Shown: one piece after another, positions 37,995 to 52,993 of the stretch
Layout: every line of letters begins with the position of its first letter
Numbering within the stretch: the first letter of the stretch is position 1
Virus record (IMG/VR): IMGVR_UViG_3300005805_000078
Coordinates: 6,707-70,706 of that record
DNA length: 64,000 nt
Strand: one strand, 5' to 3'
From: a virus
Taxonomy: Duplodnaviria > Caudoviricetes
Position numbers and translations under genes: made by a program
Notes under the pieces: model-generated
What the model was told of the DNA's origin: nothing
Database searches by the model: none
What the model saw: only the letters and a program-made list of their open reading frames with translations

Positions 37995-38015
37995 AGTTGA
38001 CTAGATCAGTCAACT
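37995..38015 (-). repeat. Palindromic cassette element 1 (GG/CC-free variant) plus promoter
   Basis: AGTTGACT-AGATC-AGTCAACT; minus promoter TTGACA 37976-81, N16, TATACT 37954-59. Confidence 0.9.
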
Positions 38016-38023
38016 ATTTTTGA

Positions 38024-38368
38024 TCAATACTTCGACAGTTTTTCAATAAAAGAATAAAACATATTCGAAGCATAATCTAGAATGACATTTTCACTCTCAA
38101 AATTTGAGATAAAATAATCAGAATATGCATTGAAATAATCAGAACGCGAACGACGATATTCTCGCAAGAATTCGACAGTAGAATGAATCGCGTCACTGTC
38201 GCGTTTTTCGATCATTACTTCAATATTGTTGATTTGTGAAGTATCTTCATTAAAATTGATTTGAATAATGACGCATACTTGATCATTATTTGAAACAGTA
38301 TATGTTTCAAAATCTCTGTCATAATCGATAAGAACAACATTCTCATAATCGACAAGAACAACATTCAT
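38024..38368 (-). CDS. Acidic protein lacking Gly, Pro and Trp
   Basis: 114 aa; GAAAGCGAG leader. Confidence 0.7.
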   Translation of the reverse strand: MNVVLVDYENVVLIDYDRDFETYTVSNNDQVCVIIQINFNEDTSQINNIEVMIEKRDSDAIHSTVEFLREYRRSRSDYFNAYSDYFISNFESENVILDYASNMFYSFIEKLSKY

Positions 38369-38413
38369 TTTGATACTCGCTTTCTGATTTGATGATTGAA
38401 TGATGATTATCGA

Positions 38414-38656
38414 TTAGTCGAGATATTCAAGACATTCTTCGATAGAATCGCATGTTGCAGAAGCGACAAATTCGTCATCTTCACGATTGTATTCATAATA
38501 CACTTCGAAGAGTGCATTATCGTACTTTTGATTGTCGATATCAACGAAATATTCGATGATATATGCAACACGCTTTTTGCTTCGCGAATTCGCACGAAAC
38601 ACATTATATTCATTGCAATCTGAAGATTCGTAAGTCTTGACGATACGATACTTCAT
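38414..38656 (-). CDS. Acidic protein lacking Gly, Pro and Trp
   Basis: MKYRIV...CDSIEECLEYLD; leader duplicated from 37912-37950. Confidence 0.72.
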   Translation of the reverse strand: MKYRIVKTYESSDCNEYNVFRANSRSKKRVAYIIEYFVDIDNQKYDNALFEVYYEYNREDDEFVASATCDSIEECLEYLD

Positions 38657-38739
38657 TTGTCTACTCGCTTTCGTGTGCTGTGTTGATCGAATGAATGCAT
38701 TATGTGTCAGACACACGAACGATACAAGCGATCTTTGCA

Positions 38740-38762
38740 TAGTTGACTAGATCGCTCGACTA
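38740..38762 (-). repeat. Palindromic element 2 plus promoter
   Basis: TAGTTGACT-AGATC-GCTCGACTA; TTGTAT 38722-27, N17, CATAAT 38699-704. Confidence 0.8.
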
Positions 38763-38958
38763 TGAAAAAAAGCTTGACAGAGTGTGCAGAGTGTGCTATT
38801 CGCGCGTGTGCGTGTGCGCGCGTGTTTGTGAGTCAGCGCAATTCTTGACAAGACAGGTCTGATTACCTCTTGACAAATTTTTTACCTGCGATCTAGAATG
38901 AAATAAACACGAATCATGTCTGCAAATAGTATATTCAATATTCAATCGAGTATCTCGA

Positions 38959-39041
38959 CACATACTCTCGCGAGTATCGAGACATACTATATGTCGAGTA
39001 TGTGCTGTGATACTCATATTATATACTCGCGAGAGTATGTG
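38959..39041. repeat. Perfect 19-bp inverted repeat in a GAGTAT/ATACTC-rich tract
   Basis: CACATACTCTCGCGAGTAT (38959-77) and ATACTCGCGAGAGTATGTG (39023-41). Confidence 0.85.
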
Positions 39042-39078
39042 CTGATATACTCGACAGTCTTAATTACTGTATTGATTG

Positions 39079-39167
39079 CACTTAATAGTTACCGCATCAC
39101 TTAATAGTCTCATTACTCACTTAATAGCTGCCCGGGGCACTTAATAGCTGCCCGGGGCACTTAATAG
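39079..39167. repeat. Five direct repeats CACTTAATAG at 19-20 bp period
   Basis: Copies at 39079, 39098, 39118, 39138, 39158. Confidence 0.9.
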
Positions 39168-39172
39168 TTTAT

Positions 39173-39397
39173 TTACTGACGATTCTTGACCGATTCAATC
39201 GTGGCTTCGATTTCTTTACGAATCTCGGGACTGCTATTCGCCATGCCTTGAATCATAGAACCGAGATAGCCGGCGATATATGCATATGCATTCGCTGAAT
39301 CGTAACCGCGCTTATTCTCGCAATCATTCTTCAGAGCATCGATCAGCTGGTCAACGAGAGTGGGTTCGTGCTTCATTTGGATCTCCGTATTCATCAT
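39173..39397 (-). CDS. Hypothetical protein, paralog of 45545-45739
   Basis: AY..GYL.SM..G.A motif; the start may be 39376 (GGAG SD). Confidence 0.7.
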   Translation of the reverse strand: MMNTEIQMKHEPTLVDQLIDALKNDCENKRGYDSANAYAYIAGYLGSMIQGMANSSPEIRKEIEATIESVKNRQ

Positions 39398-39446
39398 GGA
39401 GTGGACTATAGCACAGTCGGTCGGCTCGGCAAGTGTTCTCTGGCAA

Positions 39447-39469
39447 TAGTCGACCGGCTTGATCGACTA
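39447..39469 (-). repeat. Palindromic element 3 plus promoter
   Basis: TAGTCGACC-GGCTT-GATCGACTA; TTGCCG 39427-32, N16, TATAGT 39405-10. Confidence 0.85.
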
Positions 39470-39476
39470 CTGATCA

Positions 39477-39620
39477 TCAAGCCCAGCGGACGGACTCGCT
39501 TCGTGCCTCATCATCGAAGAACGCATACCAACCGCGCTTCCAATCGCCGGTTTCGCTAGCATCGAAAGCCTCGCCGAGAGCGGCTGCATTGTAGCCTTGG
39601 GTGTATTTGCTAGGTGTCAT
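39477..39620 (-). CDS. 47-aa hypothetical protein
   Basis: Downstream of promoter 39650-77. Confidence 0.6.
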   Translation of the reverse strand: MTPSKYTQGYNAAALGEAFDASETGDWKRGWYAFFDDEARSESVRWA

Positions 39621-39688
39621 TTTGTGTCCCGCGTTGATCGAATGAAGACAGTATAGCAGTGTCGGACGGTTCGTCAAGTGTCTGGCAA

Positions 39689-39711
39689 TAGTTGACCAGA
39701 TCGCTCGACTA
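39689..39711 (-). repeat. Palindromic element 4 plus promoter
   Basis: TAGTTGACC-AGATC-GCTCGACTA; TTGACG 39672-77, N16, TATACT 39650-55. Confidence 0.85.
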
Positions 39712-39843
39712 TTACCGCTTCGTCACACTCGACACCAGCTGCACAGTGGAATCATACGTGCGGTCGATAAACTGTGCGATCGGAACAATGCCGAAATGCA
39801 TGATCGCGACGCCGAGAATAAGACCGAAGAGTATCTTTGCCAT
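39712..39843 (-). CDS. 43-aa membrane protein
   Basis: MAKILFGLILGVAIMHFG. Confidence 0.6.
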   Translation of the reverse strand: MAKILFGLILGVAIMHFGIVPIAQFIDRTYDSTVQLVSSVTKR

Positions 39844-39909
39844 TTCGTTCACCGTGTTTTGATGGTTGTATCTTACAGGCGCCGGTGCGATTGGCAACCA
39901 GTTGGAAAA

Positions 39910-39932
39910 TAGTCTACCAATCCGGTCAGACA
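39910..39932. repeat. Degenerate element 5 between divergent promoters
   Basis: TAGTCTACC-AATCC-GGTCAGACA; minus TTGCCA 39892-97/TAAGAT 39870-75; plus TTGCCG 39937-42/TATAAT 39959-64. Confidence 0.75.
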
Positions 39933-39970
39933 CCGGTTGCCGGCACTAAAGCTGGTGCTATAATGGCTCC

Positions 39971-40076
39971 ATAGCACTGGTCGTCCGAGGCTCTAATCCA
40001 ACCCTGCGCGTCAAACGTGCCTCGGCTCCGCCTGCGCGGGTTCAAATTCTTGATCGCTCCGCTCAAGTATTTTTTT
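39971..40076 (+). ncRNA. Candidate small structured RNA (possible pseudoknot)
   Basis: Consensus TGn-TATAAT promoter, no ORF, two interleaved stems, terminal hairpin plus T7. Confidence 0.45.
40046..40070 (+). repeat. Palindromic element 6 plus promoter
   Basis: ATTCTTGATC-GCTCC-GCTCAAGTAT then T-run; TTGCCA 40084-89, N16, TACAGT 40106-11. Confidence 0.7.
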
Positions 40077-40132
40077 GCGCTGGTTGCCATCCACCACGGT
40101 ATCGTTACAGTCTAAGCACGTTTCAACAAAAG

Positions 40133-40330
40133 GTGATATTCGATATGCGTTATTCGGCACTGCGTGTTGCACAAGATATTGCATTTAAACACGGCGTCGA
40201 TAATATATTCGCTGAAGTATATACTATGCGCCGAGAGTATGACGATATATTCGATTCTGTCGAGTATACTATGGAGTATCTCGGTCTGTACGATGACTGG
40301 TATAATACGTGGGTGAATCAAGTGGAATAA
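40133..40330 (+). CDS. Small acidic hypothetical protein
   Basis: ORF after promoter 40084. Confidence 0.55.
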   Translation: MIFDMRYSALRVAQDIAFKHGVDNIFAEVYTMRREYDDIFDSVEYTMEYLGLYDDWYNTWVNQVE

Positions 40331-40512
40331 TATGCGTGTGTAGTGTGTGTGGGGGAAAATAGAATCCTAGGAATTGGCTTAGTCCCACCACACCATATAT
40401 AATCGCGATACACCGCGATACGACCGCATATTATGCTACAATATCGCATTTCATCGAAATTAAACACTACACAATGTCATATCCGCGACATACTCCGCGA
40501 CAATGCGACACC

Positions 40513-40563
40513 ATACACTACCCATAGTGTACTATGGAATATCAGACACTATGGGTAGTGTAT
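40513..40563. repeat. Perfect 18-bp inverted repeat with 15-nt loop
   Basis: ATACACTACCCATAGTGT / ACACTATGGGTAGTGTAT. Confidence 0.88.
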
Positions 40564-40579
40564 ACTTCCTTCAATCATC

Positions 40580-41017
40580 ATGAAAATGGCAAATGAAATG
40601 ACAAAGGCTGTATTTTATATTCAATATGACGACGGTTCTTACACTCAGACCGTATTCGAATCGGCGATTATGGCTAAACGTGCTTATAATCGTTATGCAA
40701 AAAGATTGGAACATAATGTAAAAGAATATGGTTGGGAAGTATTATCAGAACCTATGACATTATCTCATCGTATACGAGAAAAGTTGAGACAATTGGAGTT
40801 AAATAATATGAATGAACGAATTAAACAACTTGAGATTCAATCTGTTTTCTATAATGAAGACACCCAATTGTGGGAGTTTGATCGAGAGAAATTCGCTGAA
40901 TTGTTGATTCAGGAATGTGCTAATGTTTGTTTATCTCAGCGTAATCCTTCTAATCTAAACTATAAACCGTCCGAAAAATTTGCTCAAGCATTGAAACAAC
41001 ATTTTGGAGTTAAATGA
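40580..41017 (+). CDS. Hypothetical protein in frame with an MNERI-family domain (internal start 40808)
   Basis: GGAG-N9-ATG at 40808; EKFAELLIQEC...QHFGVK. Confidence 0.65.
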   Translation: MKMANEMTKAVFYIQYDDGSYTQTVFESAIMAKRAYNRYAKRLEHNVKEYGWEVLSEPMTLSHRIREKLRQLELNNMNERIKQLEIQSVFYNEDTQLWEFDREKFAELLIQECANVCLSQRNPSNLNYKPSEKFAQALKQHFGVK

Positions 41018-41018
41018 T

Positions 41019-41234
41019 ATGAACGAAAGAATTAAAGAACTAATGATTGAATCTGGTTCTACTGGCACTTATCAAGTTTGGTTTACTCGAAACGAAGTCC
41101 ATAAACTCGCCGAGTTACTAATTAAAGAATGTATCAAAGCATCTATGGTATCGATTCTTGATAATAATATCGGTGATCGTGAAGATTGTGTTATTGTTGG
41201 TTCTGATATTTCTGATCATTTTGGAATGGAGTGA
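41019..41234 (+). CDS. MNERI-family protein
   Basis: MNERIKEL...KLAELLIKEC...DHFGME. Confidence 0.75.
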   Translation: MNERIKELMIESGSTGTYQVWFTRNEVHKLAELLIKECIKASMVSILDNNIGDREDCVIVGSDISDHFGME

Positions 41235-41242
41235 AATAATAT

Positions 41243-41458
41243 ATGGAAATCAAAAAGGTTTACAAAACAAGTAAGGGTCTTTTTTGGACTAAAGAAGAGG
41301 CGGAGAAGAAAAAGAATCGGGCGAAAGAAAAGGAATTCTATAACACTGAATATCAATATGAAAAAGTGCGTGAAGTATATGTTCTCGTTACTTGGAAAGA
41401 CCAAGACTACGGTATCTACGGTATGGCTTTTGAATTAAACCCTGTGGAGATTCAATAA
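41243..41458 (+). CDS. Hypothetical protein
   Basis: SD GGAG. Confidence 0.6.
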   Translation: MEIKKVYKTSKGLFWTKEEAEKKKNRAKEKEFYNTEYQYEKVREVYVLVTWKDQDYGIYGMAFELNPVEIQ

Positions 41459-41643
41459 TGAACGATGATAAAATGGCTCAATATTTCTCTTATCTTGATA
41501 TTCTTCGAGAATCTGGCGTTACGAATATGTTCGGTGCTGTGCCGTATCTTATGCACCAATTCGATATTCCAAAGGCAGAGGCGCGGAATGTTTTGCTTGC
41601 GTGGATGGACTTCAAAGAAAAGGCAAGTATGGCGCAGAAATGA
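41458..41643 (+). CDS. Small conserved phage protein
   Basis: YLDILRESGVTNMFGAVPYL motif. Confidence 0.75.
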   Translation: MNDDKMAQYFSYLDILRESGVTNMFGAVPYLMHQFDIPKAEARNVLLAWMDFKEKASMAQK

Positions 41644-41663
41644 CTGACCGGATCGGTCAACTA
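41642..41663 (+). repeat. Palindromic element 7 plus promoter
   Basis: GACTGACC-GGATC-GGTCAACTA; TTGCCT 41678-83, N16, TATAGT 41700-05. Confidence 0.88.
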
Positions 41664-41741
41664 TTTTACCTAGGTGCTTGCCTCGTTTTCCTACTCTGCT
41701 ATAGTCCACTCCATCGAAAGACACATGAGAGGTGACAGAAG

Positions 41742-42233
41742 ATGATTCCGAAGTTTGAAACGCAGACCGAAATGATCGCTTACGTTCATTCGCTCACCGA
41801 TGCTGATCGTATTCGTATCGTCGCCGAGCATGGCATCGCACCGAAGAATCGCTCAGAAGCATCCGTTCTCGCCGATTACATTGTGCAAGGCGTTTCGAAG
41901 GGTCTGACCGGCGCGGCTCTCACCGCGTATGCTGAAGAACGGACGAAGCGCCTGATCGCGATTATGCCTCATCTCGGTCGCGCACAGCCTGACGAAGAGC
42001 CGATCATTGTCGAGGTCGCACCTGTCGCACCTGTCGCGGTTCCTGCTGCACCTAAGGCACCTCGCGTCGCCAAGACCAAGTATCCTGACGGTACGATTGT
42101 CGCCCGCCCTGATCGCGGCGGCTTCGAAGGCTGGTACGCTGGCAAGGCTGAAGCCTTCCGCCCGACTGTGGAGAAGGTCGCTTCGTTCTTTGCGAAAAAG
42201 TATCCCGAAGTCAAGACTGTGGTTCTTGCCTGA
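41742..42233 (+). CDS. Two-domain protein, paralog of 47251-47874
   Basis: KFETQ...ADYIVQG...; KTKYPDG...GGFEGWYAG.AEAFRPTVEKV. Confidence 0.8.
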   Translation: MIPKFETQTEMIAYVHSLTDADRIRIVAEHGIAPKNRSEASVLADYIVQGVSKGLTGAALTAYAEERTKRLIAIMPHLGRAQPDEEPIIVEVAPVAPVAVPAAPKAPRVAKTKYPDGTIVARPDRGGFEGWYAGKAEAFRPTVEKVASFFAKKYPEVKTVVLA

Positions 42234-42249
42234 CCGGATCGGTCAACAA
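42229..42249 (+). repeat. Palindromic element 8 plus promoter
   Basis: TGACC-GGATC-GGTCA containing the upstream TGA stop; TGC-TATAAT downstream. Confidence 0.88.
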
Positions 42250-42310
42250 TCGCGCCAAAGTCCAAAACCACTGCTATAATCCAGACCGTTCTAAGATAAG
42301 AGGTGGAAAA

Positions 42311-42505
42311 ATGACTGACATGGAAAAGGCTTTTGATGTTCTCTCCGAAGCTGGAATGAATCCAACGTGGGTAGGCGGTGATTACATTATCGCAAACGTC
42401 ACCGGAATCAGGCTCTTGCCAGGCAAAAAGACCGAGGCATACACCGAAACCGAGATTGTTCGGAGTCTCGCCTCTGCACTCTGGTTGGTCGGAATTTGCG
42501 AGTAA
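42311..42505 (+). CDS. Hypothetical protein
   Basis: SD GAGGTGG. Confidence 0.6.
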   Translation: MTDMEKAFDVLSEAGMNPTWVGGDYIIANVTGIRLLPGKKTEAYTETEIVRSLASALWLVGICE

Positions 42506-42508
42506 ACG

Positions 42509-42533
42509 ATTGTCGACCAAATCGGTCAACAAT
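42509..42533 (+). repeat. Palindromic element 9 plus promoter
   Basis: ATTGTCGACC-AAATC-GGTCAACAAT; TTGCCA-N17-TATAGT (42556-61). Confidence 0.9.
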
Positions 42534-42568
42534 TGCCAAAGTCCAAAACCACTGCTATAGTCCACTCC

Positions 42569-42796
42569 ATGATGACGCTGAAAACCGAAACGAAGCAAAA
42601 CTGGTTCAATACACTGAATGCGGCTCTCGAATCTGAGGGCTTGCTTGATACGTGGGATTGTTCCTGGGCACCGATCAACTATGGCAAGACCCGCACGTAC
42701 CGCGTCGATGACGGTTCTCGGTACGGTCGCCAAGTCTCCATCTATCGTGATGAAATGGGACGATATGAACGTCCGGTCCACTATTCTCGGGGTTGA
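42569..42796 (+). CDS. Small conserved phage protein, possibly leaderless
   Basis: SIYRDEMGRYERPVHY motif; ATG 7 nt after the -10 box. Confidence 0.65.
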   Translation: MMTLKTETKQNWFNTLNAALESEGLLDTWDCSWAPINYGKTRTYRVDDGSRYGRQVSIYRDEMGRYERPVHYSRG

Positions 42797-43002
42797 ATAT
42801 GTCCACTCAACATATTGTTGGTATTGTCGGAGGGTCGAATTTTCGCGACCAATATACTATCGATAAAATAAGATTCGATAAAGAAACCGATGCGTTCCAA
42901 TTCATGCGGAACTATAATCGTTCTTTCGATTCTGGTAAATCGCATTATGTTCGCGCAGAGTATCTCGGTGAAATCGACACGGATACTGGCGACTACGTTT
43001 AA
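42793..43002 (+). CDS. Hypothetical protein
   Basis: Coupled ORF. Confidence 0.55.
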   Translation: MNMSTQHIVGIVGGSNFRDQYTIDKIRFDKETDAFQFMRNYNRSFDSGKSHYVRAEYLGEIDTDTGDYV

Positions 43003-43035
43003 TAACCGTAACCATAAACAAGGAAGGTAAACAAA

Positions 43036-43350
43036 ATGTTTTTCACTTTTCGACAAAACAATTCATTCGGCGTATTTGATGTGGACGATAATGTCGATCA
43101 CTTCGTGATTATCGAAGCAGAGTCATCCGGCGAAGCCGATGATATCGGCGAGCATATCGGTATCTATTTCGATGGTGTCGAAAAAGGTATTGATTGTGAA
43201 TGCTGCGGTGATAGGTGGTATTGAAACTATGGACGTGGTACAGAAAAGCCTGAAATATATGGTAAGAGCCCGTCCGAGCATTCTTATGAATATATTATTC
43301 ACTATAAGGATGGCAGAATCGAACGTGATGGAGTAATCAAGAATGTCTAA
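43036..43350 (+). pseudogene. DUF7296-like gene with an in-frame TGA at 43222-43224 (nonsense mutation, readthrough or sequence error)
   Basis: F.QNNS.G...CECCGDRWY*NYGRGTEKPEIYG...IHYKDGR; extended frame ends overlapping the next ATG (43343). Confidence 0.65.
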
Positions 43351-43609
43351 TGAAACTATACAAAATGAATTGTATGAATACATTTTGAGTAAGGGTGTAT
43401 TCGATGCGCCGTACGGTGTATTACTCTCGGATCATGTTTCGAAAAAGGGCTTTAAATCAAAAGCTATTACCTTTGGGCGCGCACGGACACTCGACGCGAC
43501 AATTGAAATATATAATCGGAAGTATTTCATTCTGAAGGCTTCTCGATTTAATCAGAATAAAGTCCTGTTCTCAGTAGCGGATCTTAAGGCTGAAATTGAT
43601 ACTCTATAG
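43343..43609 (+). CDS. Hypothetical protein
   Basis: SD GGAG; stop lies inside element 10. Confidence 0.65.
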   Translation: MSNETIQNELYEYILSKGVFDAPYGVLLSDHVSKKGFKSKAITFGRARTLDATIEIYNRKYFILKASRFNQNKVLFSVADLKAEIDTL

Positions 43610-43629
43610 TTGACCGGAGAAGTCAACAA
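43607..43629 (+). repeat. Palindromic element 10 plus promoter
   Basis: TAGTTGACC-GGAGA-AGTCAACAA; TTGCCA 43642-47, N16, TAGAAT 43664-69. Confidence 0.85.
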
Positions 43630-43702
43630 TCCGAATGCTGGTTGCCAGTCTTACGGAAACCTGTAGAATCCATTCTGTTGACGGTTGATAAGGAGTTCGG
43701 AA

Positions 43703-43960
43703 ATGACTGATCGATATGTCCAGACGGTTGAAATGCGAAGGTGCGTTCTCGGGCTTGTGGAGCATAGCGTTACTGTTCGCCGCATCGATAATCGGTACCA
43801 TGTCCGCGTTTACGTTGACGGTCTACTGAATCAGGAAGCATATTGCACCGATAAGTCCGACATTGGTTACACTGCACGTTCCCTCCTGCGCTGGGAAGAT
43901 AAGTGTGGCAATATCTCAGAATTCGCATCCGCCGCACGGAAGCGCCTGTTCCAAGAGTAA
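43703..43960 (+). CDS. Hypothetical protein
   Basis: SD AAGGAG. Confidence 0.7.
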   Translation: MTDRYVQTVEMRRCVLGLVEHSVTVRRIDNRYHVRVYVDGLLNQEAYCTDKSDIGYTARSLLRWEDKCGNISEFASAARKRLFQE

Positions 43961-44145
43961 GACTAAGGATTCCCGACTAATGACGTGGTATGACCAGATT
44001 TTCGCCCATGCTGCGTGGACCGAATTCGCAAGAATCTTCCCGCGTGAGGCTCAGATTTACAGGCTATTGCCTGTGCACCGTGGACCCTATCGTTCGATGG
44101 TCGAGGACTTTTTCAAGGCTTTCGAAGGACGCTAGGCGCGAGAGT

Positions 44146-44167
44146 GTCTGACCGATCCGGTCAACTA
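44146..44167 (+). repeat. Palindromic element 11 plus promoter
   Basis: GTCTGACC-GATCC-GGTCAACTA; TTGCCA 44180-85, N16, TAGAAT 44202-07. Confidence 0.88.
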
Positions 44168-44242
44168 TTCTTGGCGTGGTTGCCAGCCCTACCAAAATCT
44201 ATAGAATCCATTCTGTTGAGTCGATAAACGAAGGGAAAAACG

Positions 44243-46498: not shown

Positions 46499-46514
46499 CC
46501 GATCCGGTCGACAA
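46495..46514 (+). repeat. Palindromic element 13 plus promoter
   Basis: TTGACC-GATCC-GGTCGACAA; TTGACA 46527-32, N16, TAGGAT 46549-54. Confidence 0.88.
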
Positions 46515-46560
46515 TCCACGAATCGATTGACAAACGAACCAGAACCTGTAGGATCCAACC

Positions 46561-46923
46561 ATGATGAACAAAACGACGAACACGGTGATGACTGAAGATT
46601 TCAAGTCCTGGCAAATTCGGAATCAGTCCAAAAAGAAGTATCGGCACCACACGGGTCGTCCTTCCACATATCGGAGAAAAGAATTCGGCTATCTTGCGGA
46701 AGTTATCCGCCTCGAGGACGAAGCGCGCCGCGCAGACCAGCACCGTGCCATTGTGCGGTTTTCTGAGCGAATCGAAAGAATGATTCTCAGTGGCGCCAAA
46801 GATCGGGAAACCGCCCTCCGTTGGATCCATGAGGCTGATGGCTCGAATAGTGACGAAGAGTACCTGGCTTACCTGAACGGCTTGCCTTACGGCTACTTTA
46901 AGTCGACCGATTCGGTCAACTAA
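46561..46923 (+). CDS. Hypothetical protein
   Basis: ATG 6 nt after the -10 box; last codons are element 14. Confidence 0.7.
   Translation: MMNKTTNTVMTEDFKSWQIRNQSKKKYRHHTGRPSTYRRKEFGYLAEVIRLEDEARRADQHRAIVRFSERIERMILSGAKDRETALRWIHEADGSNSDEEYLAYLNGLPYGYFKSTDSVN
46901..46921 (+). repeat. Palindromic element 14 plus promoter
   Basis: AGTCGACC-GATTC-GGTCAACT; TTGCCG 46935-40, N16, TATAGT 46957-62. Confidence 0.9.
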
Positions 46924-46998
46924 TCGGCCGCTGGTTGCCGAACCGTCCGACTCTGCTATAGTACATACATCGATTGACGAAAACTGAAAGGAAATCGA

Positions 46999-47211
46999 AT
47001 GAACGGCTGGACTAATCGTGCTACTTGGTTGGTGAATATGTGGTTTGAACCTCAATCTAAGGAGGATGTTGCGATGGCTCGCGAGGAATTCGAAAATACT
47101 ATTGACAATCTTCCGGCTTGGCTCCGTGATTTTGTCGATCAGGACATCAACTGGGAAGAAATTGAAGAACACTTCGATGATATCGAAGTTGAAGAAAACG
47201 AAGATGAATAA
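46999..47211 (+). CDS. Small very acidic phage protein (NGWTN family)
   Basis: MNGWTNRATW...INWEEI; D/E-rich tail. Confidence 0.75.
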   Translation: MNGWTNRATWLVNMWFEPQSKEDVAMAREEFENTIDNLPAWLRDFVDQDINWEEIEEHFDDIEVEENEDE

Positions 47212-47250
47212 GCTTTAATCGTAAACTGTAAATCCAAAGAGGAGTATATT

Positions 47251-47874
47251 ATGGAAACTGTGAATCTGAAGTTTGAAACCCAATCTGGAATGGCTGCCTT
47301 TCTCAAGGGTCTTAAGTATAACGATCATTTGAAAATGGCTTCTCGTTTCGGCGTGAAACCCATTCCTCGCAGTAAGGAGCAAGCGGCTCTGGTCGCTGAC
47401 TATCTGGTGCAAGGTATTAACAAGGGTCTTACCGGCGAGGCTCTCGCTGAATATGCAAAGGAGCGTACCAACCGACTGGCTGCGATTATTCCCGAATTGA
47501 CGAATGTGGATTCTGAAATGGCTGTGGGAAATGATCCCGTCACCGAAACCGTCGCCGAAGCCTCGGTCGAAATCGAAACCCAAGGCGAGGCTACGGTTGA
47601 AGAAAGCGCCAGTGTCGAGGAAACAGCGGCTCCGATCGAAGAATCGACCACTGATGCTACGGTGACCACGGCTATTGTTGCGGAGACTCCTAAGCGCGCC
47701 AGGAAAGTCTCCAAGACCAAGTATCCTGATGGCAGCATTGTGGCGCGACTTGATCGTGGTGGCTTCGATGGCTGGTATGCTGGTCGTGCCGAAGCCTTCC
47801 GCCCGACCGTCGAGAAGGTTCAACAATTCTTTGCCAAAAAGTATCCGGATATCGTGACTGTGGTTGTTGAGTAA
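47251..47874 (+). CDS. Two-domain protein, paralog of 41742-42233
   Basis: SD GAGGAG; shared N- and C-domains, acidic linker. Confidence 0.8.
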   Translation: METVNLKFETQSGMAAFLKGLKYNDHLKMASRFGVKPIPRSKEQAALVADYLVQGINKGLTGEALAEYAKERTNRLAAIIPELTNVDSEMAVGNDPVTETVAEASVEIETQGEATVEESASVEETAAPIEESTTDATVTTAIVAETPKRARKVSKTKYPDGSIVARLDRGGFDGWYAGRAEAFRPTVEKVQQFFAKKYPDIVTVVVE

Positions 47875-47886
47875 TCCGGTCAACAA
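47864..47886 (+). repeat. Palindromic element 15 plus promoter enclosed in an extra 11-bp inverted repeat
   Basis: TTGTTGAGT-AATCC-GGTCAACAA; TTGCCG 47900-05, N17, TAGAAT 47923-28. Confidence 0.82.
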
Positions 47887-47966
47887 TTCGATGCGGTGGT
47901 TGCCGAACGGACACCGCATCGATAGAATCATTTTTGTAACGTCAATTTTTAAACAAGGAGTGTCTG

Positions 47967-48191
47967 ATGACCACCAGTATTGATATTTCCCAAGCCCTTG
48001 ACAATCTGATGAAGATCAAGGCCGCTCTTCGCGAGGCGCGCGCCAAGGAACGTGCCGAAAAGGTCGCCGCGGCTAAAGCCTCTGCAAAGGCGAAGGCTGC
48101 GAATCTTCGCGCCGTGAAGGCTCAAATCCGCGCACTCATGAAGGCGCATGATATCAAGGTCGAAGACCTGGCGGAAGAGACTGTACATTAA
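47967..48191 (+). CDS. Small basic Ala/Lys-rich coiled-coil protein
   Basis: SD AAGGAG; KAKAANLRAVK. Confidence 0.7.
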   Translation: MTTSIDISQALDNLMKIKAALREARAKERAEKVAAAKASAKAKAANLRAVKAQIRALMKAHDIKVEDLAEETVH

Positions 48192-48212
48192 AAACCGGTC
48201 GAACCCAGTACC

Positions 48213-48245
48213 AAAGCCGATGGCTCACGCTATCGGCTTTTTTTT
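48213..48245 (+). terminator. Intrinsic terminator
   Basis: AAAGCCGATGGC-TCAC-GCTATCGGCTTT followed by T-run. Confidence 0.85.
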
Positions 48246-48398
48246 CGTCCTATGAAAACGTTCCAATCGTTCTCCAATGCTTCGGTTTTGCGTGAGCATA
48301 CACCGCATAGTGTCGGCGAACCAATCGATCCTGGCGTGTCCTGGTTCGTCCTTCAGACCATGCATAGAATGAGAAAGTGTGGCACGGCGCTGACACAA

Positions 48399-48419
48399 TG
48401 TCGACCGGATCGGTCAAGC
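48399..48419 (+). repeat. Palindromic element 16 plus promoter
   Basis: TGTCGACC-GGATC-GGTCAAGC; TTGCCG 48434-39, N17, CAGAAT 48457-62. Confidence 0.82.
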
Positions 48420-48495
48420 TTTCGCAACAATGGTTGCCGCTCTGTTCAGAGTCTGACAGAATTCATTCTGTCGTAACAAGAAAGGTGCTTCGAAA

Positions 48496-48681
48496 ATGTT
48501 GACTCGCTACTTTGTTCAATTCGGCGAAAACTCCCGTATGTGGGAGGTTGTCGATATTCAGACTAACGGCGCCATTGCATGGTACGAATATCCATATGCT
48601 GCCGAAGATCATGCGACCGATCTAAATGTGGTCGATGAATTCGAATATGAAATGGCTGCGTATAACGCCGACACGTACTAA
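48496..48681 (+). CDS. Small acidic hypothetical protein
   Basis: SD AAGGTG. Confidence 0.6.
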   Translation: MLTRYFVQFGENSRMWEVVDIQTNGAIAWYEYPYAAEDHATDLNVVDEFEYEMAAYNADTY

Positions 48682-48698
48682 TTCAAGGAGTTTTGAAA

Positions 48699-48926
48699 AT
48701 GGAAATTTTCAATCGTGGCGATAAGGTTCGTGTCGAATATTCATATCGCAAATTCTTCGAAGGTACTGTACTCTGGACTGAAAAATCTGGTTCTCTTGAA
48801 TTTGTCACGGTTAGACCAGATGATTTGAAAATGATTTACACGTTCGGTTCCTCTCGCGATATGGACAATCAATATAAAGCATATATTGCGAATGACGAAA
48901 TTCTCGGGCGTGTCAAAAAGATTTAA
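48699..48926 (+). CDS. Small SH3/KOW-like protein
   Basis: FNRGDKVRV..FEGTV; SD AAGGAG. Confidence 0.6.
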   Translation: MEIFNRGDKVRVEYSYRKFFEGTVLWTEKSGSLEFVTVRPDDLKMIYTFGSSRDMDNQYKAYIANDEILGRVKKI

Positions 48927-48938
48927 TTAGGAAGTATA

Positions 48939-49145
48939 TTGAATATGATTACCGCAAACTACATGGCGCCTCGTTATGAATTTCGCGCCGAATACTTGAC
49001 CGATGATTATACGTATCATGGTTTTGGTATTGAGCCTCTCGATGCACCGGAGTCCATTTCTGCGGGTTCCCATGTCTGGGTGGACTATCTTTCGATACCA
49101 GGTGGTACTTGGCTTCCTTCTGTCGTGACTCGCGAGTGGCAATGA
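48939..49145 (+). CDS. Hypothetical protein
   Basis: Stop abuts element 17. Confidence 0.55.
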   Translation: MNMITANYMAPRYEFRAEYLTDDYTYHGFGIEPLDAPESISAGSHVWVDYLSIPGGTWLPSVVTREWQ

Positions 49146-49167
49146 TAGTCGACCAGTCCGGTAGACT
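49146..49167 (+). repeat. Palindromic element 17 plus promoter
   Basis: TAGTCGACC-AGTCC-GGTAGACT; TTGCCA 49182-87, N16, TAGAAT 49204-09. Confidence 0.85.
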
Positions 49168-49262
49168 TTCGAACGGACTGGTTGCCAACCTCTGACGGTT
49201 GTATAGAATTCATTCTGTTGTCCCCCTCTACCGCCGCAGTAACCAACCAAAGGCAAGACACC

Positions 49263-49991
49263 ATGATTCTCCTGAGCACCGGCAACCCGAAGATTCTTAA
49301 GGGTCAGAGCCAAGGCTACATGACCTTCATTCTTCATCTTGCACCCTACACACTGTCTGGTCACAATACCTGCCCGAAGGCGACGCCTGGCTGTGCTGCG
49401 GCATGCCTTAACACCGCTGGTCGTGGTGGTATGTTCAAGCGAGGCGAGAATACCAACGTCATTCAAAAGGCACGTATTCGCAAGACCAATTGGTTTTTCG
49501 AAGACCGTGCATCGTTTATGGCGGCTCTTGTTAATGACATTCAAAAAGCTATTCGCCACGCAGAAAAGCGTGGTTATATTCCCGTGTTTCGTTTGAATGG
49601 TACTTCCGATCTTGCATGGGAAAAGTATCCCGTGATTCGTAATGGCATCGAATATAAGAATATCTTCGATGCATTCTCTACCGTCCAATTCTATGATTAC
49701 ACCAAAATTCTTGGTCGTAAGATCAAAGATATTCAGAATTATCATCTGACGTTTTCAAAGGCAGAATCGAACCGATTTGATGTTGCATATGCACTCAATC
49801 TCGGTTATAACGTGGCTGTAGTATTCTCGACAAAGAAAGGTGCTGCATTGCCTGATAATTATCTGAATCGCCCGGTGTTTAACGGCGACGAATCCGATCT
49901 TCGATTCTTGGATCCGAAGAATGTGATTGTTGGTCTTTACGCCAAAGGCCGTGCAAAGAAAGACACCTCTGGTTTTGTGGTTCAAGTTTAA
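49263..49991 (+). CDS. GP88-family (radical-SAM-like Cys cluster) protein
   Basis: NTCPKATPGCAAACLNTAGRG, RLNGTSD, FYDYTK, GDESDLRFLD. Confidence 0.75.
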   Translation: MILLSTGNPKILKGQSQGYMTFILHLAPYTLSGHNTCPKATPGCAAACLNTAGRGGMFKRGENTNVIQKARIRKTNWFFEDRASFMAALVNDIQKAIRHAEKRGYIPVFRLNGTSDLAWEKYPVIRNGIEYKNIFDAFSTVQFYDYTKILGRKIKDIQNYHLTFSKAESNRFDVAYALNLGYNVAVVFSTKKGAALPDNYLNRPVFNGDESDLRFLDPKNVIVGLYAKGRAKKDTSGFVVQV

Positions 49992-50171
49992 TAGGAGTAA
50001 ATAAAATGATGACGATTCTCGGTATGGTTCCCTACATGATTGTAGGTGGTATTCTTGCTTCCATGGGTTATGGTGTTATGAATATGAATTGGCAACTTTT
50101 TGCCATTCTTGGTTGTATGTGTATCTCTGAATTTATTTCTATGTTCAAGTATTCTCGTTAAGGATATAAAA

Positions 50172-50378
50172 ATGAAAGATAATACTCTATATCGAGTGAT
50201 TGAAAGGGATACTAACGAAATTCGAGAATTTGAAGATCCTTATGATATTTCGATATATTTTTTGGGTCGGGTTGTCAGTGATTACATTGTTGTAAAAAGC
50301 GATGAAAATGGTGATCGTGTGGTGATTTTCAATGATTATGAAATGAACGCTATTAAAAAAGCTTTGATCGCAGGTTAA
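50172..50378 (+). CDS. Hypothetical protein
   Basis: SD AAGGA. Confidence 0.55.
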   Translation: MKDNTLYRVIERDTNEIREFEDPYDISIYFLGRVVSDYIVVKSDENGDRVVIFNDYEMNAIKKALIAG

Positions 50379-50393
50379 ATAGAAGTAAACAAA

Positions 50394-50582
50394 ATGCCCT
50401 ATATTCTTCAAATTTTCAAAGTTGATCCTGTTTCGGGTTCTAAGGAACTATTTAAGGAAATTTCTTACGCATTTGTATCCGGTACTGAAATGATGGATAT
50501 ACTTTATGGTGCTCGACATTTTGGTATTGCGGAATATTTTAATCTTCCTTTGAAAAATCAATACGATATGACGTTTAAGTGA
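50394..50582 (+). CDS. Hypothetical protein
   Basis: Stop abuts element 18. Confidence 0.5.
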   Translation: MPYILQIFKVDPVSGSKELFKEISYAFVSGTEMMDILYGARHFGIAEYFNLPLKNQYDMTFK

Positions 50583-50607
50583 GAAGTTGATTGATCCGGT
50601 CAACTTC
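50583..50607 (+). repeat. Palindromic element 18 plus promoter
   Basis: GAAGTTGATT-GATCC-GGTCAACTTC; TTGCCA 50620-25, N17, TACACT 50643-48. Confidence 0.88.
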
Positions 50608-50677
50608 TTTTCTTGATGCTTGCCACCCCACCAACGTAGTGCTACACTGTATTCAAGTTAGAAAAAAGAGGTAATAA

Positions 50678-51691
50678 ATGCGTAAAATGGCTTCAATTCG
50701 TAAGATCGATAACATTGTGCCGATTCTCGGTGCCGATGCTATCGAATGCGCCATGATTGGCGGGTGGTCTGTCGTGGTAAAGCGCGGCGAATTCAATATC
50801 GGCGACCTTGCAGTATATGTGGAAATTGATGCATGGGTGCCGACTGAGATTGCACCGTTCCTTTCTAAGGGTCACGAACCACGCGAATATAATGGCGTGA
50901 AAGGTGAACGGCTGAAGACTGTCCGCCTTCGTGGTCAATTGAGCCAGGGTCTTTTGTTGTCTCGTTATCTTATCTTGGATAAGATCGGCGAAATCTACGA
51001 AGGTATTGACGTTACCGAAGCCCTTGGCATTCAAAAGTGGGAACCTCCTGTATCTCCGCAATTGGCTGGACAAACTAAGGGTACTTTTCCGTCTTTTATT
51101 CCGAAGACCGATCAAGAGCGAGTGCAGAATCTGGTTCCGATTATCTCTGTTGCATTTAATCGTTCTGATACTTTCGAGATTACAGAAAAACTTGAAGGTT
51201 CTTCTATGACCGTTTTCATGCACCAAGGTGAATTCGGCGTTTGTTCTCGAAATCAAGAATTGAAGCAAACGGAAGACAATACTTTCTGGAAGGTTGCACT
51301 CGAAAACGATATTGAGAATCGTATTCGCTCCCTTGATCTGGATAACATTGCGATTCAAGGTGAATTGGTCGGTCCAGGTATTCAAGGCAATATCTACAAG
51401 TTTGTGAATCATAAGTTTTTCGTATTCGACATTTACGATATCAAGAGTGGTCGATATTTGAATCCGAATGAACGGTGTGTAATTGTTTCCCGCCTTCGCC
51501 TGATGCATGTTCCGATTATTGCTTTGAATAAGAGTCTTCCTTCTGCCGATGTTTCTGTTATTCTTAACATGGCTGAAGGCAAGAGTATTCTCTCCGTAAA
51601 TCAGGAACGTGAAGGTATTGTGTTTAAGGATACAAAAGGTGGATTTAGCTTTAAGGCTATTTCTAATAAGTATCTGTTGAAGCAAGGTTAA
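50678..51691 (+). CDS. RNA ligase, Rnl2/DRB0094-like with N-terminal OB domain
   Basis: ASIRKI..I.PI.GAD.IE, TEKLEGSS, QGEL.GPGIQGN, EREGIV, FKAISN. Confidence 0.9.
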   Translation: MRKMASIRKIDNIVPILGADAIECAMIGGWSVVVKRGEFNIGDLAVYVEIDAWVPTEIAPFLSKGHEPREYNGVKGERLKTVRLRGQLSQGLLLSRYLILDKIGEIYEGIDVTEALGIQKWEPPVSPQLAGQTKGTFPSFIPKTDQERVQNLVPIISVAFNRSDTFEITEKLEGSSMTVFMHQGEFGVCSRNQELKQTEDNTFWKVALENDIENRIRSLDLDNIAIQGELVGPGIQGNIYKFVNHKFFVFDIYDIKSGRYLNPNERCVIVSRLRLMHVPIIALNKSLPSADVSVILNMAEGKSILSVNQEREGIVFKDTKGGFSFKAISNKYLLKQG

Positions 51692-51705
51692 AAGGAGCAT
51701 TTAGA

Positions 51706-51891
51706 ATGAAGTATGTTATTCTTTCTCTTCTCGTTCTTTCTCTCACCGGTTGCGGCTGGTTTGAACGGAAGGTTGTAGCCAATTTCACAGGCTATGGTAA
51801 GGTGTGCGTGGATGGCGTCCAGTATCTACAATTCGCATCCGGTGCCACCGTGCAATACGATAAGGACGGCAAGGTTGTGTTGTGCAAGTGA
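51706..51891 (+). CDS. Small lipoprotein
   Basis: Lipobox LTG-C. Confidence 0.7.
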   Translation: MKYVILSLLVLSLTGCGWFERKVVANFTGYGKVCVDGVQYLQFASGATVQYDKDGKVVLCK

Positions 51892-51892
51892 T

Positions 51893-51915
51893 TAGTTGAC
51901 CAGACCGGTCGACTA
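51893..51915 (+). repeat. Palindromic element 19 plus promoter
   Basis: TAGTTGACC-AGACC-GGTCGACTA; TTGCCA 51929-34, N17, TAGAAT 51952-57. Confidence 0.9.
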
Positions 51916-52004
51916 CTTCGAGCAGTGGTTGCCAGAGCCACCGCCCTGCACTAGAATTCATTTTGTGGTGAATGACAGGTAACGAAACAATCAAGGAATG
52001 TGAA

Positions 52005-52292
52005 ATGCACAATCATACTGAATATGGCGTTTGTCCTGTGTGCAATGGCTCTGGTCGTGTTCCTGCTGGTAAATACCGCGGTATTTACGGCTACGATAAG
52101 GCAACCGATACGATTGGTTGCCGAAACTGTGGCGGTCAAACCATGAGTATGCGTGCCACGGGAAAGGTTCGTCTCCGTCGCGATGGTACGCCGTGCGAAC
52201 ATAAGTATGTCGGTCATAATGCCGGTCGGTGCTACACTGTTTACACATGCGAGCATTGCGGCGATACTTTTTCCATCGATTCTGGCGATTGA
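52005..52292 (+). CDS. Zinc-finger protein
   Basis: CPVCNGSG, CRNCGG, CEH, CEHCG. Confidence 0.75.
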   Translation: MHNHTEYGVCPVCNGSGRVPAGKYRGIYGYDKATDTIGCRNCGGQTMSMRATGKVRLRRDGTPCEHKYVGHNAGRCYTVYTCEHCGDTFSIDSGD

Positions 52293-52313
52293 AGTTGACA
52301 GAAACGGTCGACT
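52293..52313 (+). repeat. Palindromic element 20 plus promoter
   Basis: AGTTGACA-GAAAC-GGTCGACT; TTGCCA 52327-32, N17, TAGAAT 52350-55. Confidence 0.85.
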
Positions 52314-52386
52314 ATTTTCGTGGCGGTTGCCAAAACACCTGCCGAGAATTAGAATCTGTTCTGTTGATTGATGAGGGCTTCTGAAA

Positions 52387-52617
52387 ATGAAAGTGCAATT
52401 GAATAACTATCCGATGCTTGAAAACGAAATGTATTGCATTTCAAAGTCTTGGTCTTTCGATTTTATCGATTGCCTTCGTTACATTTACGATAATCGTAAA
52501 GAGTATGACGGCACTGACGTCTGGACCGAATTCGTGCAATTTACCTCTGAAATTGGTTTTCTTTCTGGTCTAGGTGATTCTTCGGAAAGTGATTTTTTTT
52601 CTGGCGTAGGTGAATAA
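52387..52617 (+). CDS. Hypothetical protein
   Basis: ORF after promoter 52327. Confidence 0.6.
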   Translation: MKVQLNNYPMLENEMYCISKSWSFDFIDCLRYIYDNRKEYDGTDVWTEFVQFTSEIGFLSGLGDSSESDFFSGVGE

Positions 52618-52968
52618 AATGTCCATCTTTTCTGAAATCGATATGGTAATCGTTGATTCTATAGTCTCAGGCGATTCTTCTTCGAAGATTGTCGAAACTC
52701 TGATTCGTGATTATAATATCAATATGAAGTTTGCAAAAAAGCTGGTTGAAAACTATTTCGACCAAGAACAAAATGAATATGAGGCTGAATATGACTGATT
52801 TTCAAGATGATGAATTTGACATTGTTGGTGGTCGTATGAAGATGAAACAAGATAAAACCATTCGATTCAAGGCGCCGAAGCCTTTTACTCGGAAACCTAT
52901 CAAGCCGCGGCAGGCACATAAGATTGCCACGCGGTATGATCGGAAGTCCACTAAGGACTTCGATTACG

Positions 52969-52993
52969 ATTCTTGACCGGATCGCTCAAGAAT
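52969..52993 (+). repeat. Palindromic element 21 plus promoter
   Basis: ATTCTTGACC-GGATC-GCTCAAGAAT; TTGCCA 53005-10, N17, TAGAAT 53028-33. Confidence 0.85.

Follow-up and report, generated by a model that had tools for sequence, protein, structure and literature searches.

A palindrome-promoter array in the early region of an uncultured T4-like phage and its likeness to IscR type-1 operators

Layout of the array

The window analysed here comprises 64 kb of a 70.7-kb contig, which comes from an uncultured, lytic T4-like phage. Within it lies the hyperplastic early-gene region of this phage, where about 45 small ORFs are grouped into cassettes, each with one to five genes (Table 1). Between 36 and 54 kb the G+C content is 0.41-0.49, compared to 0.33-0.39 before. 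Named cassette genes encode DruA-like (45908-46498), GP88-like and AAA-like proteins as well as an RNA ligase.

The array of palindromes and promoters reported in the original prediction is confirmed. The palindrome, (ATA)GTYGACC-N5-GGTCRAC(TAT), occurs at 37996-52990 in 20 clear copies besides a degenerate one, so the count of 21 holds, and so does the constant spacer of 5 nt. When up to two mismatches are allowed, GTYGACC-N5-GGTCRAC matches 19 times in the window (0.24 expected), a number reached by none of 100 shuffled sequences. Eighteen of these matches fall inside 37996-52312; a looser scan adds copies at 39912, at 52972 and the degenerate one at 40049-40067. The motif scan, which had been proposed together with the prediction, found no copies outside the array in the rest of the contig. 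Closeness to the upstream stop codon was also borne out, as at least 15 of 19 copies overlap it or sit within 11 nt of it, judged by ORF ends.

Table 1. Features of the cassette region (window positions; gap is the distance from palindrome to -35 box)
Feature	Span	Strand	Palindrome	Gap (nt)	-35 box	Spacer (nt)	-10 box	Remarks
Hyperplastic early region	37666-54533	.
Unit 1	37954-38014	-	37996-38014	14	TTGACA at 37981	16	TATACT ending 37954	GACT...AGTC variant
Unit 2	38699-38760	-	38742-38760	14	TTGTAT	17	CATAAT
Unit 3	39405-39467	-	39449-39467	16	TTGCCG	16	TATAGT
Unit 4	39650-39709	-	39691-39709	13	TTGACG	16	TATACT
Unit 5	39870-39964	.	39912-39930	14 (left); 6 (right)	TTGCCA at 39897 (left); TTGCCG at 39937 (right)		TAAGAT (left); TATAAT (right)	divergence point
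Unit 6	40049-40111	+	40049-40067	16	TTGCCA at 40084	16	TACAGT	degenerate, CTTGATC-GCTCC-GCTCAAG
Unit 7	41643-41705	+	41643-41661	16	TTGCCT	16	TATAGT
Unit 8	42229-42280	+	42229-42247	4	GCGCCA	17	TATAAT	arm contains upstream TGA stop
Unit 9	42512-42561	+	42512-42530	2	TTGCCA	17	TATAGT	promoter shares 97% identity with unit 8 promoter
Unit 10	43609-43669	+	43609-43627	14	TTGCCA	16	TAGAAT
Unit 11	44147-44207	+	44147-44165	14	TTGCCA	16	TAGAAT
Unit 12	45447-45507	+	45447-45465	14	TTGCCA	16	TAGGAT	perfect palindrome
Unit 13	46494-46554	+	46494-46512	14	TTGACA	16	TAGGAT	arm contains TGA stop
Unit 14	46902-46962	+	46902-46920	14	TTGCCG	16	TATAGT	inside 3' end of ORF 46561-46923
Unit 15	47866-47928	+	47866-47884	15	TTGCCG	17	TAGAAT
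Terminator	48213-48248	+						canonical intrinsic, sole one inside array; 12-bp stem then T8
Unit 16	48400-48462	+	48400-48418	15	TTGCCG	17	CAGAAT
Unit 17	49148-49209	+	49148-49166	15	TTGCCA	16	TAGAAT	GP88-like gene 49263-49991 next
Unit 18	50586-50648	+	50586-50604	15	TTGCCA	17	TACACT	RNA ligase gene 50678-51691 next
Unit 19	51895-51957	+	51895-51913	15	TTGCCA	17	TAGAAT
Unit 20	52294-52355	+	52294-52312	14	TTGCCA	17	TAGAAT
Unit 21	52972-53033	+	52972-52990	14	TTGCCA	17	TAGAAT	CTTGACC...GCTCAAG; AAA-like gene 53071-53907 next

As predicted, every copy is followed by a -35-like box, 16-17 nt and a -10 box, in the general pattern TTGCCR/TTGACA and TAnAAT. The palindromes thus stand before 22 sigma70-type promoters, five of them leftward (37981, 38727, 39432, 39677, 39897) and 17 rightward. 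One palindrome is common to two divergent promoters, and there the orientation, which follows the genes, changes as had been claimed. The claimed distance of a few to about 20 nt before the -35 box has to be replaced by two classes: 18 promoters have a gap of 13-16 nt and the other four one of 2-6 nt, placing the palindrome centre near -60 and near -50, respectively. Other IMG/VR phage contigs have the same two classes and none at 7-12 nt; in one of them (L039), a palindrome again lies between divergent promoters. The length of the gap is constrained, while its bases differ from copy to copy.

Cassette exchange and comparison with PeSLs

The architecture is that of the published PeSL cassettes of T4-like phages (RB49/phi1, T4/PST, KVP40/nt-1), in which small ORFs of the hyperplastic region are separated by stem-loops, each standing immediately before an early sigma70 promoter (Arbiol et al. 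2010, PMC2839356; Comeau et al. 2014, PMC4122927). Position upstream of the -35 box and strong conservation of the palindrome, originally taken as a difference from PeSLs, therefore do not distinguish the array. In both systems the inverted repeat and its promoter recur between small, mostly unknown ORFs, stems are conserved inside each phage and differ from one phage group to another, and the gene content beside the units varies among relatives. There are differences as well. Unlike the G-run/C-run stems of RB49 or the A3-4G3...C3T3-4 stems of nt-1, the stem found here resembles the operator of a bacterial regulator; most copies have no T-tract, the distance to the -35 box falls into narrow classes, and the same palindrome is essentially single-copy in other phages. 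For RB49 PeSLs, terminator activity and mini-circles have been demonstrated.

The view of the region as a cassette array of small early genes gains support from its gene content. Among about 130 related loci, 33 of the 45 cassette ORFs have no homologue; the few genes shared with relatives differ there in order and orientation. Whole cassettes are duplicated within the region, and ORFs 41742-42233 and 47251-47874 are paralogues.

The copy number of the palindrome ranges from 0 to 21 among related phages. Four large related contigs (G001-G004) carry it essentially as a single copy, still 14 nt before a promoter, with one extra two-mismatch match in each of G003 and G004. Because 60 of 80 related loci lack the palindrome, and some relatives have a different inverted repeat (TGTTGT-N7-ACAACA) before promoters, the position of the stem-loop may be more important than this particular sequence. 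Recombination at the element is plausible by analogy with PeSLs. The repeated units of 60-100 bp would then provide homology for gain, loss and duplication of cassettes, and the PeSL model requires no dedicated recombinase.

The palindrome as an RNA hairpin

In the simplest case, the array would consist of ordinary PeSLs: the RNA stem-loop ends, attenuates or stabilises the transcript of the upstream cassette, the repeat serves mainly as recombination homology, and any likeness to IscR sites is meaningless. Stem-loops of published PeSLs indeed acted as transcription terminators when assayed with a reporter (PMC2839356). The shared layout, the location of most copies at the upstream gene's stop codon and the other inverted repeat at the same place in some relatives are all in agreement with such a role. 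Moreover, all copies fold more stably than they do when shuffled (on average -9.4 against -3.8 kcal/mol), five of them pass a loose terminator scan, and a few double changes (CTT...AAG, GCT...AGC) are symmetric in both arms and hence hairpin-compatible.

Nevertheless, the palindromes are poor terminators. A T-tract (6 or more T among the first 9 nt beyond the stem) follows only 2 of the 21 copies, the stems have 5-9 pairs, and the mean hairpin energy compares with -18.9 kcal/mol for the terminator at 48213, our yardstick for real terminators in this phage. Compensatory change between the arms is almost absent: pairing holds in 81.2% of cells against 78.8% after shuffling, C-A mismatches (9) are about as frequent at the variable position as U-G pairs (11), and deviations in the distal arm are uncompensated. 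Since palindrome 39912-39930 lies between divergent promoters, there is no upstream transcript for it to end. A gap constrained in length and free in sequence likewise speaks against ordinary PeSLs, and so does the match to IscR sites described below. We consider this explanation rather unlikely and suggest that the palindrome most likely acts at the DNA level and not by terminating RNA. The insulating role contained in the original prediction is accordingly doubtful. While the PeSL layout has been published, the poor terminator character, the near absence of compensation and the IscR-like palindrome are new.

Likeness to IscR operators and possible regulators

IscR, a [2Fe-2S] regulator of the Rrf2 family, is a bacterial iron-sulfur sensor, and its known type-1 sites repress by promoter overlap. 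We propose that the palindrome is most likely a near-consensus, fully symmetric operator of the Rrf2/IscR type-1 kind. The type-1 consensus is ATASYYGACTRWWWYAGTCRRSTAT and site B of the P. aeruginosa iscR promoter is ATAGTTGACCTAATTACTCGGATAA (PMC6599224). Phage copies match the consensus at 18-22 of 25 positions, compared to a mean of 9.4 for the window background. Both share a 25-bp layout with outer ATA/TAT, then SYY/RRS, then GAC/GTC, in which 7 nt separate GAC from GTC; the arm variants GTT, GTC, CTT and GCT all stay within the SYY/RRS code. The phage half-site ATAGTTGACC equals the left half of the site B found in the iscR promoters of E. coli as well as P. aeruginosa.

A matrix built from the 20 phage copies alone recovers native iscR-promoter sites. 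Its best match lies 10-250 nt upstream of an iscR-like ORF in 24 of 32 gammaproteobacterial loci, and a matrix of the arms only gives the same number. The reversed matrix succeeds in 2 of these loci, and 200 symmetric column permutations in 3.3 on average and 9 at most. In 3 kb of E. coli K-12, the top two matches are the adjacent sites of the iscR promoter (21.3 and 19.5, the next match being 3.2); the range for the phage copies is 21-32. Resemblance to genuine IscR sites is thus far beyond chance. An exact bacterial match, located in a Porticoccus MAG 22 nt before a monothiol glutaredoxin gene, points the same way.

Several features nevertheless differ from native sites. The phage copies are more symmetric, mostly contain GACC/GGTC instead of GACT/AGTC, and number about 21 in 15 kb of viral DNA, with no iron-sulfur genes downstream of them. 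At positions 10 and 16 they have C and G, not T and A, as in some native sites too, and the centre of many copies in this window, GGATC/GATCC, is less A/T-rich than the consensus RWWWY. Because the phage copies lie upstream of the -35 box and known type-1 sites lie over the promoter, the mode of action would have to differ.

On balance, we lean towards PeSL-type cassettes whose "stem-loop" is a candidate operator for host IscR. The regulatory role originally claimed thereby acquires a concrete, though predicted, candidate. A dimer of host IscR, if the host encodes it, or of a close Rrf2 relative, would bind the 25-bp site ATA-GTY-GACC-N5-GGTC-RAC-TAT at its set distance in front of each of the 22 early promoters, and all cassettes would respond jointly to the iron-sulfur and redox state of the host. 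The effect may be activation, repression or decoy; the regulator might also, or instead, be soaked up by the roughly 21 strong sites that each phage genome carries. If true, phage early genes are tied to the host iron-sulfur regulator. LexA boxes of temperate phages such as GIL01 (PMC6182141) similarly place sites of a global host regulator at phage promoters, making expression follow host state. Here, in contrast, the phage is lytic and T4-like, the candidate regulator senses iron-sulfur status and not DNA damage, and sites stand at every early promoter instead of forming one switch.

Another conceivable binder is a dimeric DNA-binding protein of unrecognised family encoded by the phage, which would regulate early genes or assist cassette recombination; such assistance at PeSL stems was speculated upon by Arbiol et al. 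(PMC2839356). Such a protein would fit with the frequency of the palindrome in phage contigs and its variable copy number there, and with the chance level of exact copies in 185,579 bacterial genomes (20 matches). It could hide among the cassette proteins, most of which belong to no known family. On the other hand, none of the 45 cassette ORFs has a DNA-binding Pfam domain above threshold, and no Rrf2 or TetR domain came up when this contig and four partial relatives were searched in six frames, although this absence is weak evidence as the genomes are 19-69% complete. The close match to a ubiquitous host regulator also makes a separate phage protein unnecessary, and we regard this possibility as improbable.

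A different regulator family could also use the same half-site. Of the 20 exact matches in bacteria, two, in Bacillota/Clostridiales MAGs, immediately precede TetR-family genes, where a self-operator is usually located, as would be expected if a host TetR-family (or other non-Rrf2) regulator recognised TAGTTGACC. We find this very improbable, for these are two cases only, the Gram-positive genomes are unlikely hosts for a T4-like phage with such promoters, and what the matrix test picks out, in two proteobacterial classes, are iscR promoters.

Palindrome-promoter units and their kinship with PeSL cassettes

The source contig (IMG/VR, 70.7 kb, estimated completeness 43%) is that of a T4-like phage, with a gene set comprising T4-type DNA polymerase, ribonucleotide reductase, PstS-like and CobS-like genes and a primase-helicase showing 72% DNA identity to its cyanomyovirus counterpart. 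Megablast of the array region against 50,697 GenBank phages returned no match, and by protein the nearest relatives reach at most 73% identity for the GP88-like protein and at most 66% for the RNA ligase.

Searching for GTYGACC-N5-GGTCRAC, with two mismatches allowed, yielded 19 matches versus 0.24 expected, 18 of them within 37996-52312. Two further clear copies and a degenerate one were added by a looser scan and a repeat finder (see the table). The 21 copies of the original prediction are thereby borne out as 20 clear and one degenerate, and the rest of the 70.7-kb, 43% complete contig contains zero palindrome copies beyond the array region. The full unit reads ATA-GTY-GACC-N5-GGTC-RAC-TAT, an inverted repeat of 7-11 bp around a 5-nt centre, located 2-16 nt ahead of the -35 box of a sigma70-like early promoter. 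The 22 promoters downstream of palindromes consist of TTGCCR or TTGACA, a spacer of 16-17 nt and TAnAAT. Four copies face leftward, 16 rightward, and one lies between divergent promoters. The expected association with stop codons was confirmed: in at least 15 cases the palindrome overlaps the stop codon of the preceding gene or sits no more than 11 nt away from it.

The distance to the -35 box, anticipated to vary loosely from a few to 20 nt, instead falls into two classes, 13-16 nt in 18 promoters and 2-6 nt in four, which places the palindrome centres near -60 or near -50. In other phages the gap is likewise 4-6 nt or 13-16 nt and never 7-12 nt, with variable sequence. That the length is constrained and the sequence is not indicates a spatial relationship to the promoter. 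Helical phasing was dropped as the cause of the two classes, because they are about 8-9 bp apart and not 10.5. Beyond the -10 box the leader is conserved as well (CCATTCTGTTGA and variants), which extends the repeated unit to 60-100 nt, more than a palindrome with a promoter.

PeSL cassettes have received little study, although their part in driving gene shuffling in T4-like phages is accepted. Published PeSLs recur in hyperplastic regions; in a reporter assay they behaved as terminators, and their recombination yields indels and mini-circles (PMC2839356, PMC4122927). Their layout, an inverted repeat just upstream of a promoter (Fig. 3 legend, PMC4122927), is the same architecture as that of the present array. 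As published, the definition of PeSL already includes the conserved palindrome upstream of -35, by which the array had been set apart from PeSL. The array is real, and it is a PeSL kind of cassette system.

Coordinates of features in the window and of selected palindromes or repeats in other contigs
Feature	Position	Remark
Palindrome	37996-38014	left arm GACT; right arm AGTC
Palindrome	38742-38760	left arm GACT; right arm GCTC (GAGC)
Palindrome	39912-39930	between divergent promoters; 14 nt to leftward -35, 6 nt to rightward -35; added by looser search
Degenerate palindrome	40049	added by looser search
Palindrome	52972	added by looser search
Conserved leader	43670-43681
Conserved leader	44208-44219
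Conserved leader	49210-49220
Conserved leader	51958-51968
Conserved leader	52356-52368
Cassette ORF	41742-42233	paralogue of 47251-47874
Cassette ORF	47251-47874	paralogue of 41742-42233
Cassette ORF	45908-46498	196 aa, DruA domain
Canonical terminator	48213-48240	12-bp stem, T8, -18.9 kcal/mol
Bracketing repeat, single-copy relative	L133:7880-7965	spans -35 to -10
Exact palindrome, Bacillota/Clostridiales MAG	L144:1532	directly upstream of a TetR-family gene
Exact palindrome, Bacillota/Clostridiales MAG	L157:2863	directly upstream of a TetR-family gene
Exact palindrome, Porticoccus MAG	L151:446	22 nt ahead of a monothiol glutaredoxin gene

Plasticity of the cassettes and occurrence of the palindrome in other phages

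Each cassette holds one to five genes, altogether about 45 small ORFs. Among their products, a DruA-like domain protein, a GP88-like protein, an Rnl2-type RNA ligase and an AAA-like protein can be recognised; the other ORFs belong to no family or only to uncharacterised phage families. No tblastn match was obtained for 33 of the 45 among about 130 loci of related phages, and the shared genes differ in order and orientation in three of the compared loci (L158, L127 and L229). Two ORFs are paralogues with 82% DNA identity over 113 nt. Each runs at its 3' end into a palindrome but their upstream contexts are unlike, which suggests that gene and downstream element were duplicated together. Units 1, 2 and 4, numbered by position, have promoter and leader in common, and the repeat families D6, D11 and D13 are made up of cassette paralogues ending at the palindrome. 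These families and the altered gene order in L158, L127 and L229 may count as indirect signs of recombination between copies. Whole cassettes have been duplicated within the region. Its G+C content is 0.41-0.49 at 36-54 kb compared with 0.33-0.39 before. The array region is hyperplastic, and, like described PeSLs, which recur between small non-essential ORFs, the element is repeated between small ORFs of a T4-like genome. A putative role of the units in cassette exchange would fit the variable content, shuffled order and internal duplications.

The DruA-like protein mentioned is encoded in an early cassette and matches the Druantia DruA domain (Pfam PF14236, E = 4e-7, just above cut-off). It is possible that this is a decoy or counter-defence gene.

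The exact 23-nt pattern was found in 16 IMG/VR contigs, mostly low-G+C phage contigs, where it lies 14 nt ahead of TTGACA-17-TATAAT. Each of the four large contigs G001-G004 has essentially one copy, with one extra 2-mismatch match each in G003 and G004, and the same scan gave five matches in a fifth, G005. Arrays of 4-6 copies occur in L158, L172 and L219. The palindrome is absent from 60 of 80 loci around GP88-like genes, and the element was seen in none of 34 RNA-ligase loci. L158 (CAIVQI010000123.1, 8.9 kb, binned as "uncultured Bacteroidetes") carries four palindrome-promoter units together with homologues of five cassette genes, and in all likelihood is a phage contig that was wrongly binned with a bacterial MAG. 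The first, loose DNA pattern applied to IMG/VR brought mainly chance and coding-sequence matches, and an apparent 17-nt spacing class turned out to be false, produced by the conserved coding stretch TACGACCATTACGGTCAAC.

A second inverted repeat, TGTTGT-N7-ACAACA, is present 4-19 nt ahead of the -35 box of many early promoters in five related IMG/VR phage contigs (L162, L165, L178, L172 and L219), and L172 contains both palindrome types. It may represent another type of stem-loop or operator that occupies this position. In single-copy relatives (L125-L138), the inverted repeat TATACAGG-N24-CCTGTATA brackets the promoter that follows the palindrome.

RNA stem-loop or DNA operator

The palindrome could be a plain PeSL element acting as RNA stem-loop, and this is the main rival of the explanation we prefer. 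In its favour are the layout shared with known PeSLs and the loose terminator scan passed by five of the 21 copies. An intrinsic (Rho-independent) terminator combines a G+C-rich stem with a U-tract, which the palindromes generally do not: a T-tract (at least 6 T in the 9 nt after the stem) follows two of the 21, and the hairpins of the copies average -9.4 kcal/mol. The array includes a sole canonical terminator, listed in the table. Moreover, the palindrome at the point of divergence is without an upstream transcript to stop.

The pattern of substitutions bears on the same issue. Among 45 distinct copies from the present and other phages, pairing cells amount to 81.2% versus 78.8% after shuffling, so that the conservation of each arm by itself explains nearly all of the pairing. 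The variable Y/R position shows nine C-A mismatches versus 11 U-G pairs. The promoter-proximal arm is more conserved than the distal one, and deviations in the distal arm are uncompensated. Judged from these sequence features, most copies probably do not serve as terminators, and we rate the plain stem-loop explanation as unlikely, though still the most serious competitor.

We suggest that the stem-loop is best read as a putative DNA operator of IscR/Rrf2 type, a reading that we hold to be somewhat favoured by the evidence. The IscR type-1 consensus is the 25-bp palindrome ATASYYGACTRWWWYAGTCRRSTAT, and site B of P. aeruginosa iscR is ATAGTTGACCTAATTACTCGGATAA (PMC6599224). The phage copies match this consensus at 18-22 of 25 positions, versus a mean of 9.4 for the window background, and palindromes account for 17 of the 21 window positions with at least 19 matches. 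All arm variants observed in phages (GTT, GTC, CTT, GCT) fall inside the consensus code SYY/RRS. The two copies in the GG/CC-poor stretch at 37.4-39.1 kb have the canonical IscR form of the left arm, and the first of them of the right arm too. Here the element is retained while CC/GG dinucleotides are purged.

A weight matrix was derived from 20 phage copies alone and run, for the sampled genomes, on the 3.4-kb locus surrounding the best Rrf2 gene. In Gammaproteobacteria its top match was positioned 10-250 nt upstream of the iscR-like ORF in 24 of 32 loci, and a matrix restricted to the arms gave the same count (24/32). The reversed matrix did so in 2/32, and 200 symmetric column permutations in 3.3 on average and nine at maximum. 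In Alphaproteobacteria, nine of 29 loci had the match upstream of iscR; about eight more had it at -820 to -950, probably in the operon promoter. Within 3 kb around iscR of E. coli K-12, the two top matches are adjacent in the iscR promoter (scores 21.3 and 19.5, next best 3.2), and they correspond to the type-1 sites defined by footprinting. With this matrix the phage copies themselves score 21-32. The palindromes resemble native autoregulatory sites of iscR promoters. IscR boxes do not discriminate between host classes, as such sites precede iscR in Gamma- and Alphaproteobacteria alike.

The phage palindromes differ in their placement. Known type-1 sites overlap the promoter and act in repression, whereas the palindromes lie upstream of it and end 2-16 nt before the -35 box. 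The only known site placed similarly is P. aeruginosa site A, at -67 to -43 (PMC6599224).

Candidate binding protein and possible roles

If the palindrome is an operator, its binder could in principle be encoded by the phage. No Rrf2 or TetR domain was found in the contig and four partial relatives, and the cassette ORFs contain no DNA-binding Pfam domain, the nearest thing being a sub-threshold H-NS N-terminal hint (E = 0.0057). Host IscR is therefore the simplest candidate, and its binding could activate, repress or titrate. A phage-encoded binder, next in rank after the plain PeSL, is improbable in our estimate. Of the sampled Gammaproteobacteria 99 of 121 gave an Rrf2 gene, of the Alphaproteobacteria 32 of 46; the former tally includes the unpublished genome G051, from which none of the analysed loci comes.

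Among 185,579 bacterial genomes, the exact palindrome gave 20 matches, which is chance level, and no enrichment in host genomes is therefore demonstrable by exact matches. Because native operators are rarely perfect, this count is weak evidence either way. Three of the exact copies are found next to TetR-family genes or a monothiol glutaredoxin gene (see the table).

With putative host IscR as the binder, we tentatively propose a joint reading, which we consider conceivable but doubtful as a whole: super-consensus IscR sites would stand before all early promoters of a lytic T4-like phage as a sensor or decoy array. As a sensor, the array would make expression of early accessory genes follow the Fe-S, iron and oxidative state of the host. 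As a decoy, the roughly 21 sites in each genome, whose number grows as the phage DNA replicates, would draw holo-IscR away from host promoters; Fe-S cluster assembly would then be derepressed, to the benefit of the phage. In a CRISPRi screen (bioRxiv 10.1101/2024.04.20.590424), T7 fitness rose on knockdown of iscR and fell on knockdown of isc biogenesis genes, which offers a plausible reason for a phage to interfere with IscR. Under either version the PeSL "stem-loop" would be a host operator taken over by the phage, and boxes of other regulators would stand at this position in related phages.

The original authors of PeSL wondered about protein binding to the stem-loops, which have so far been treated as terminators (PMC2839356). 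The stem described here has the sequence of a known and widespread host operator, and the protein-binding question becomes tractable in E. coli. If binding is confirmed, a lytic environmental phage would tie its whole set of early accessory genes to host iron-sulfur status, or titrate the sensor of it. Otherwise the array still adds a clear example to a cassette type already known.

A GATC (as GGATC, GATCC or AGATC) occupies the centre of about 11 of the 21 copies; in related phages the centres are A/T-rich and it is seldom seen. Possibly a Dam or restriction site is here overlaid on the putative operator.
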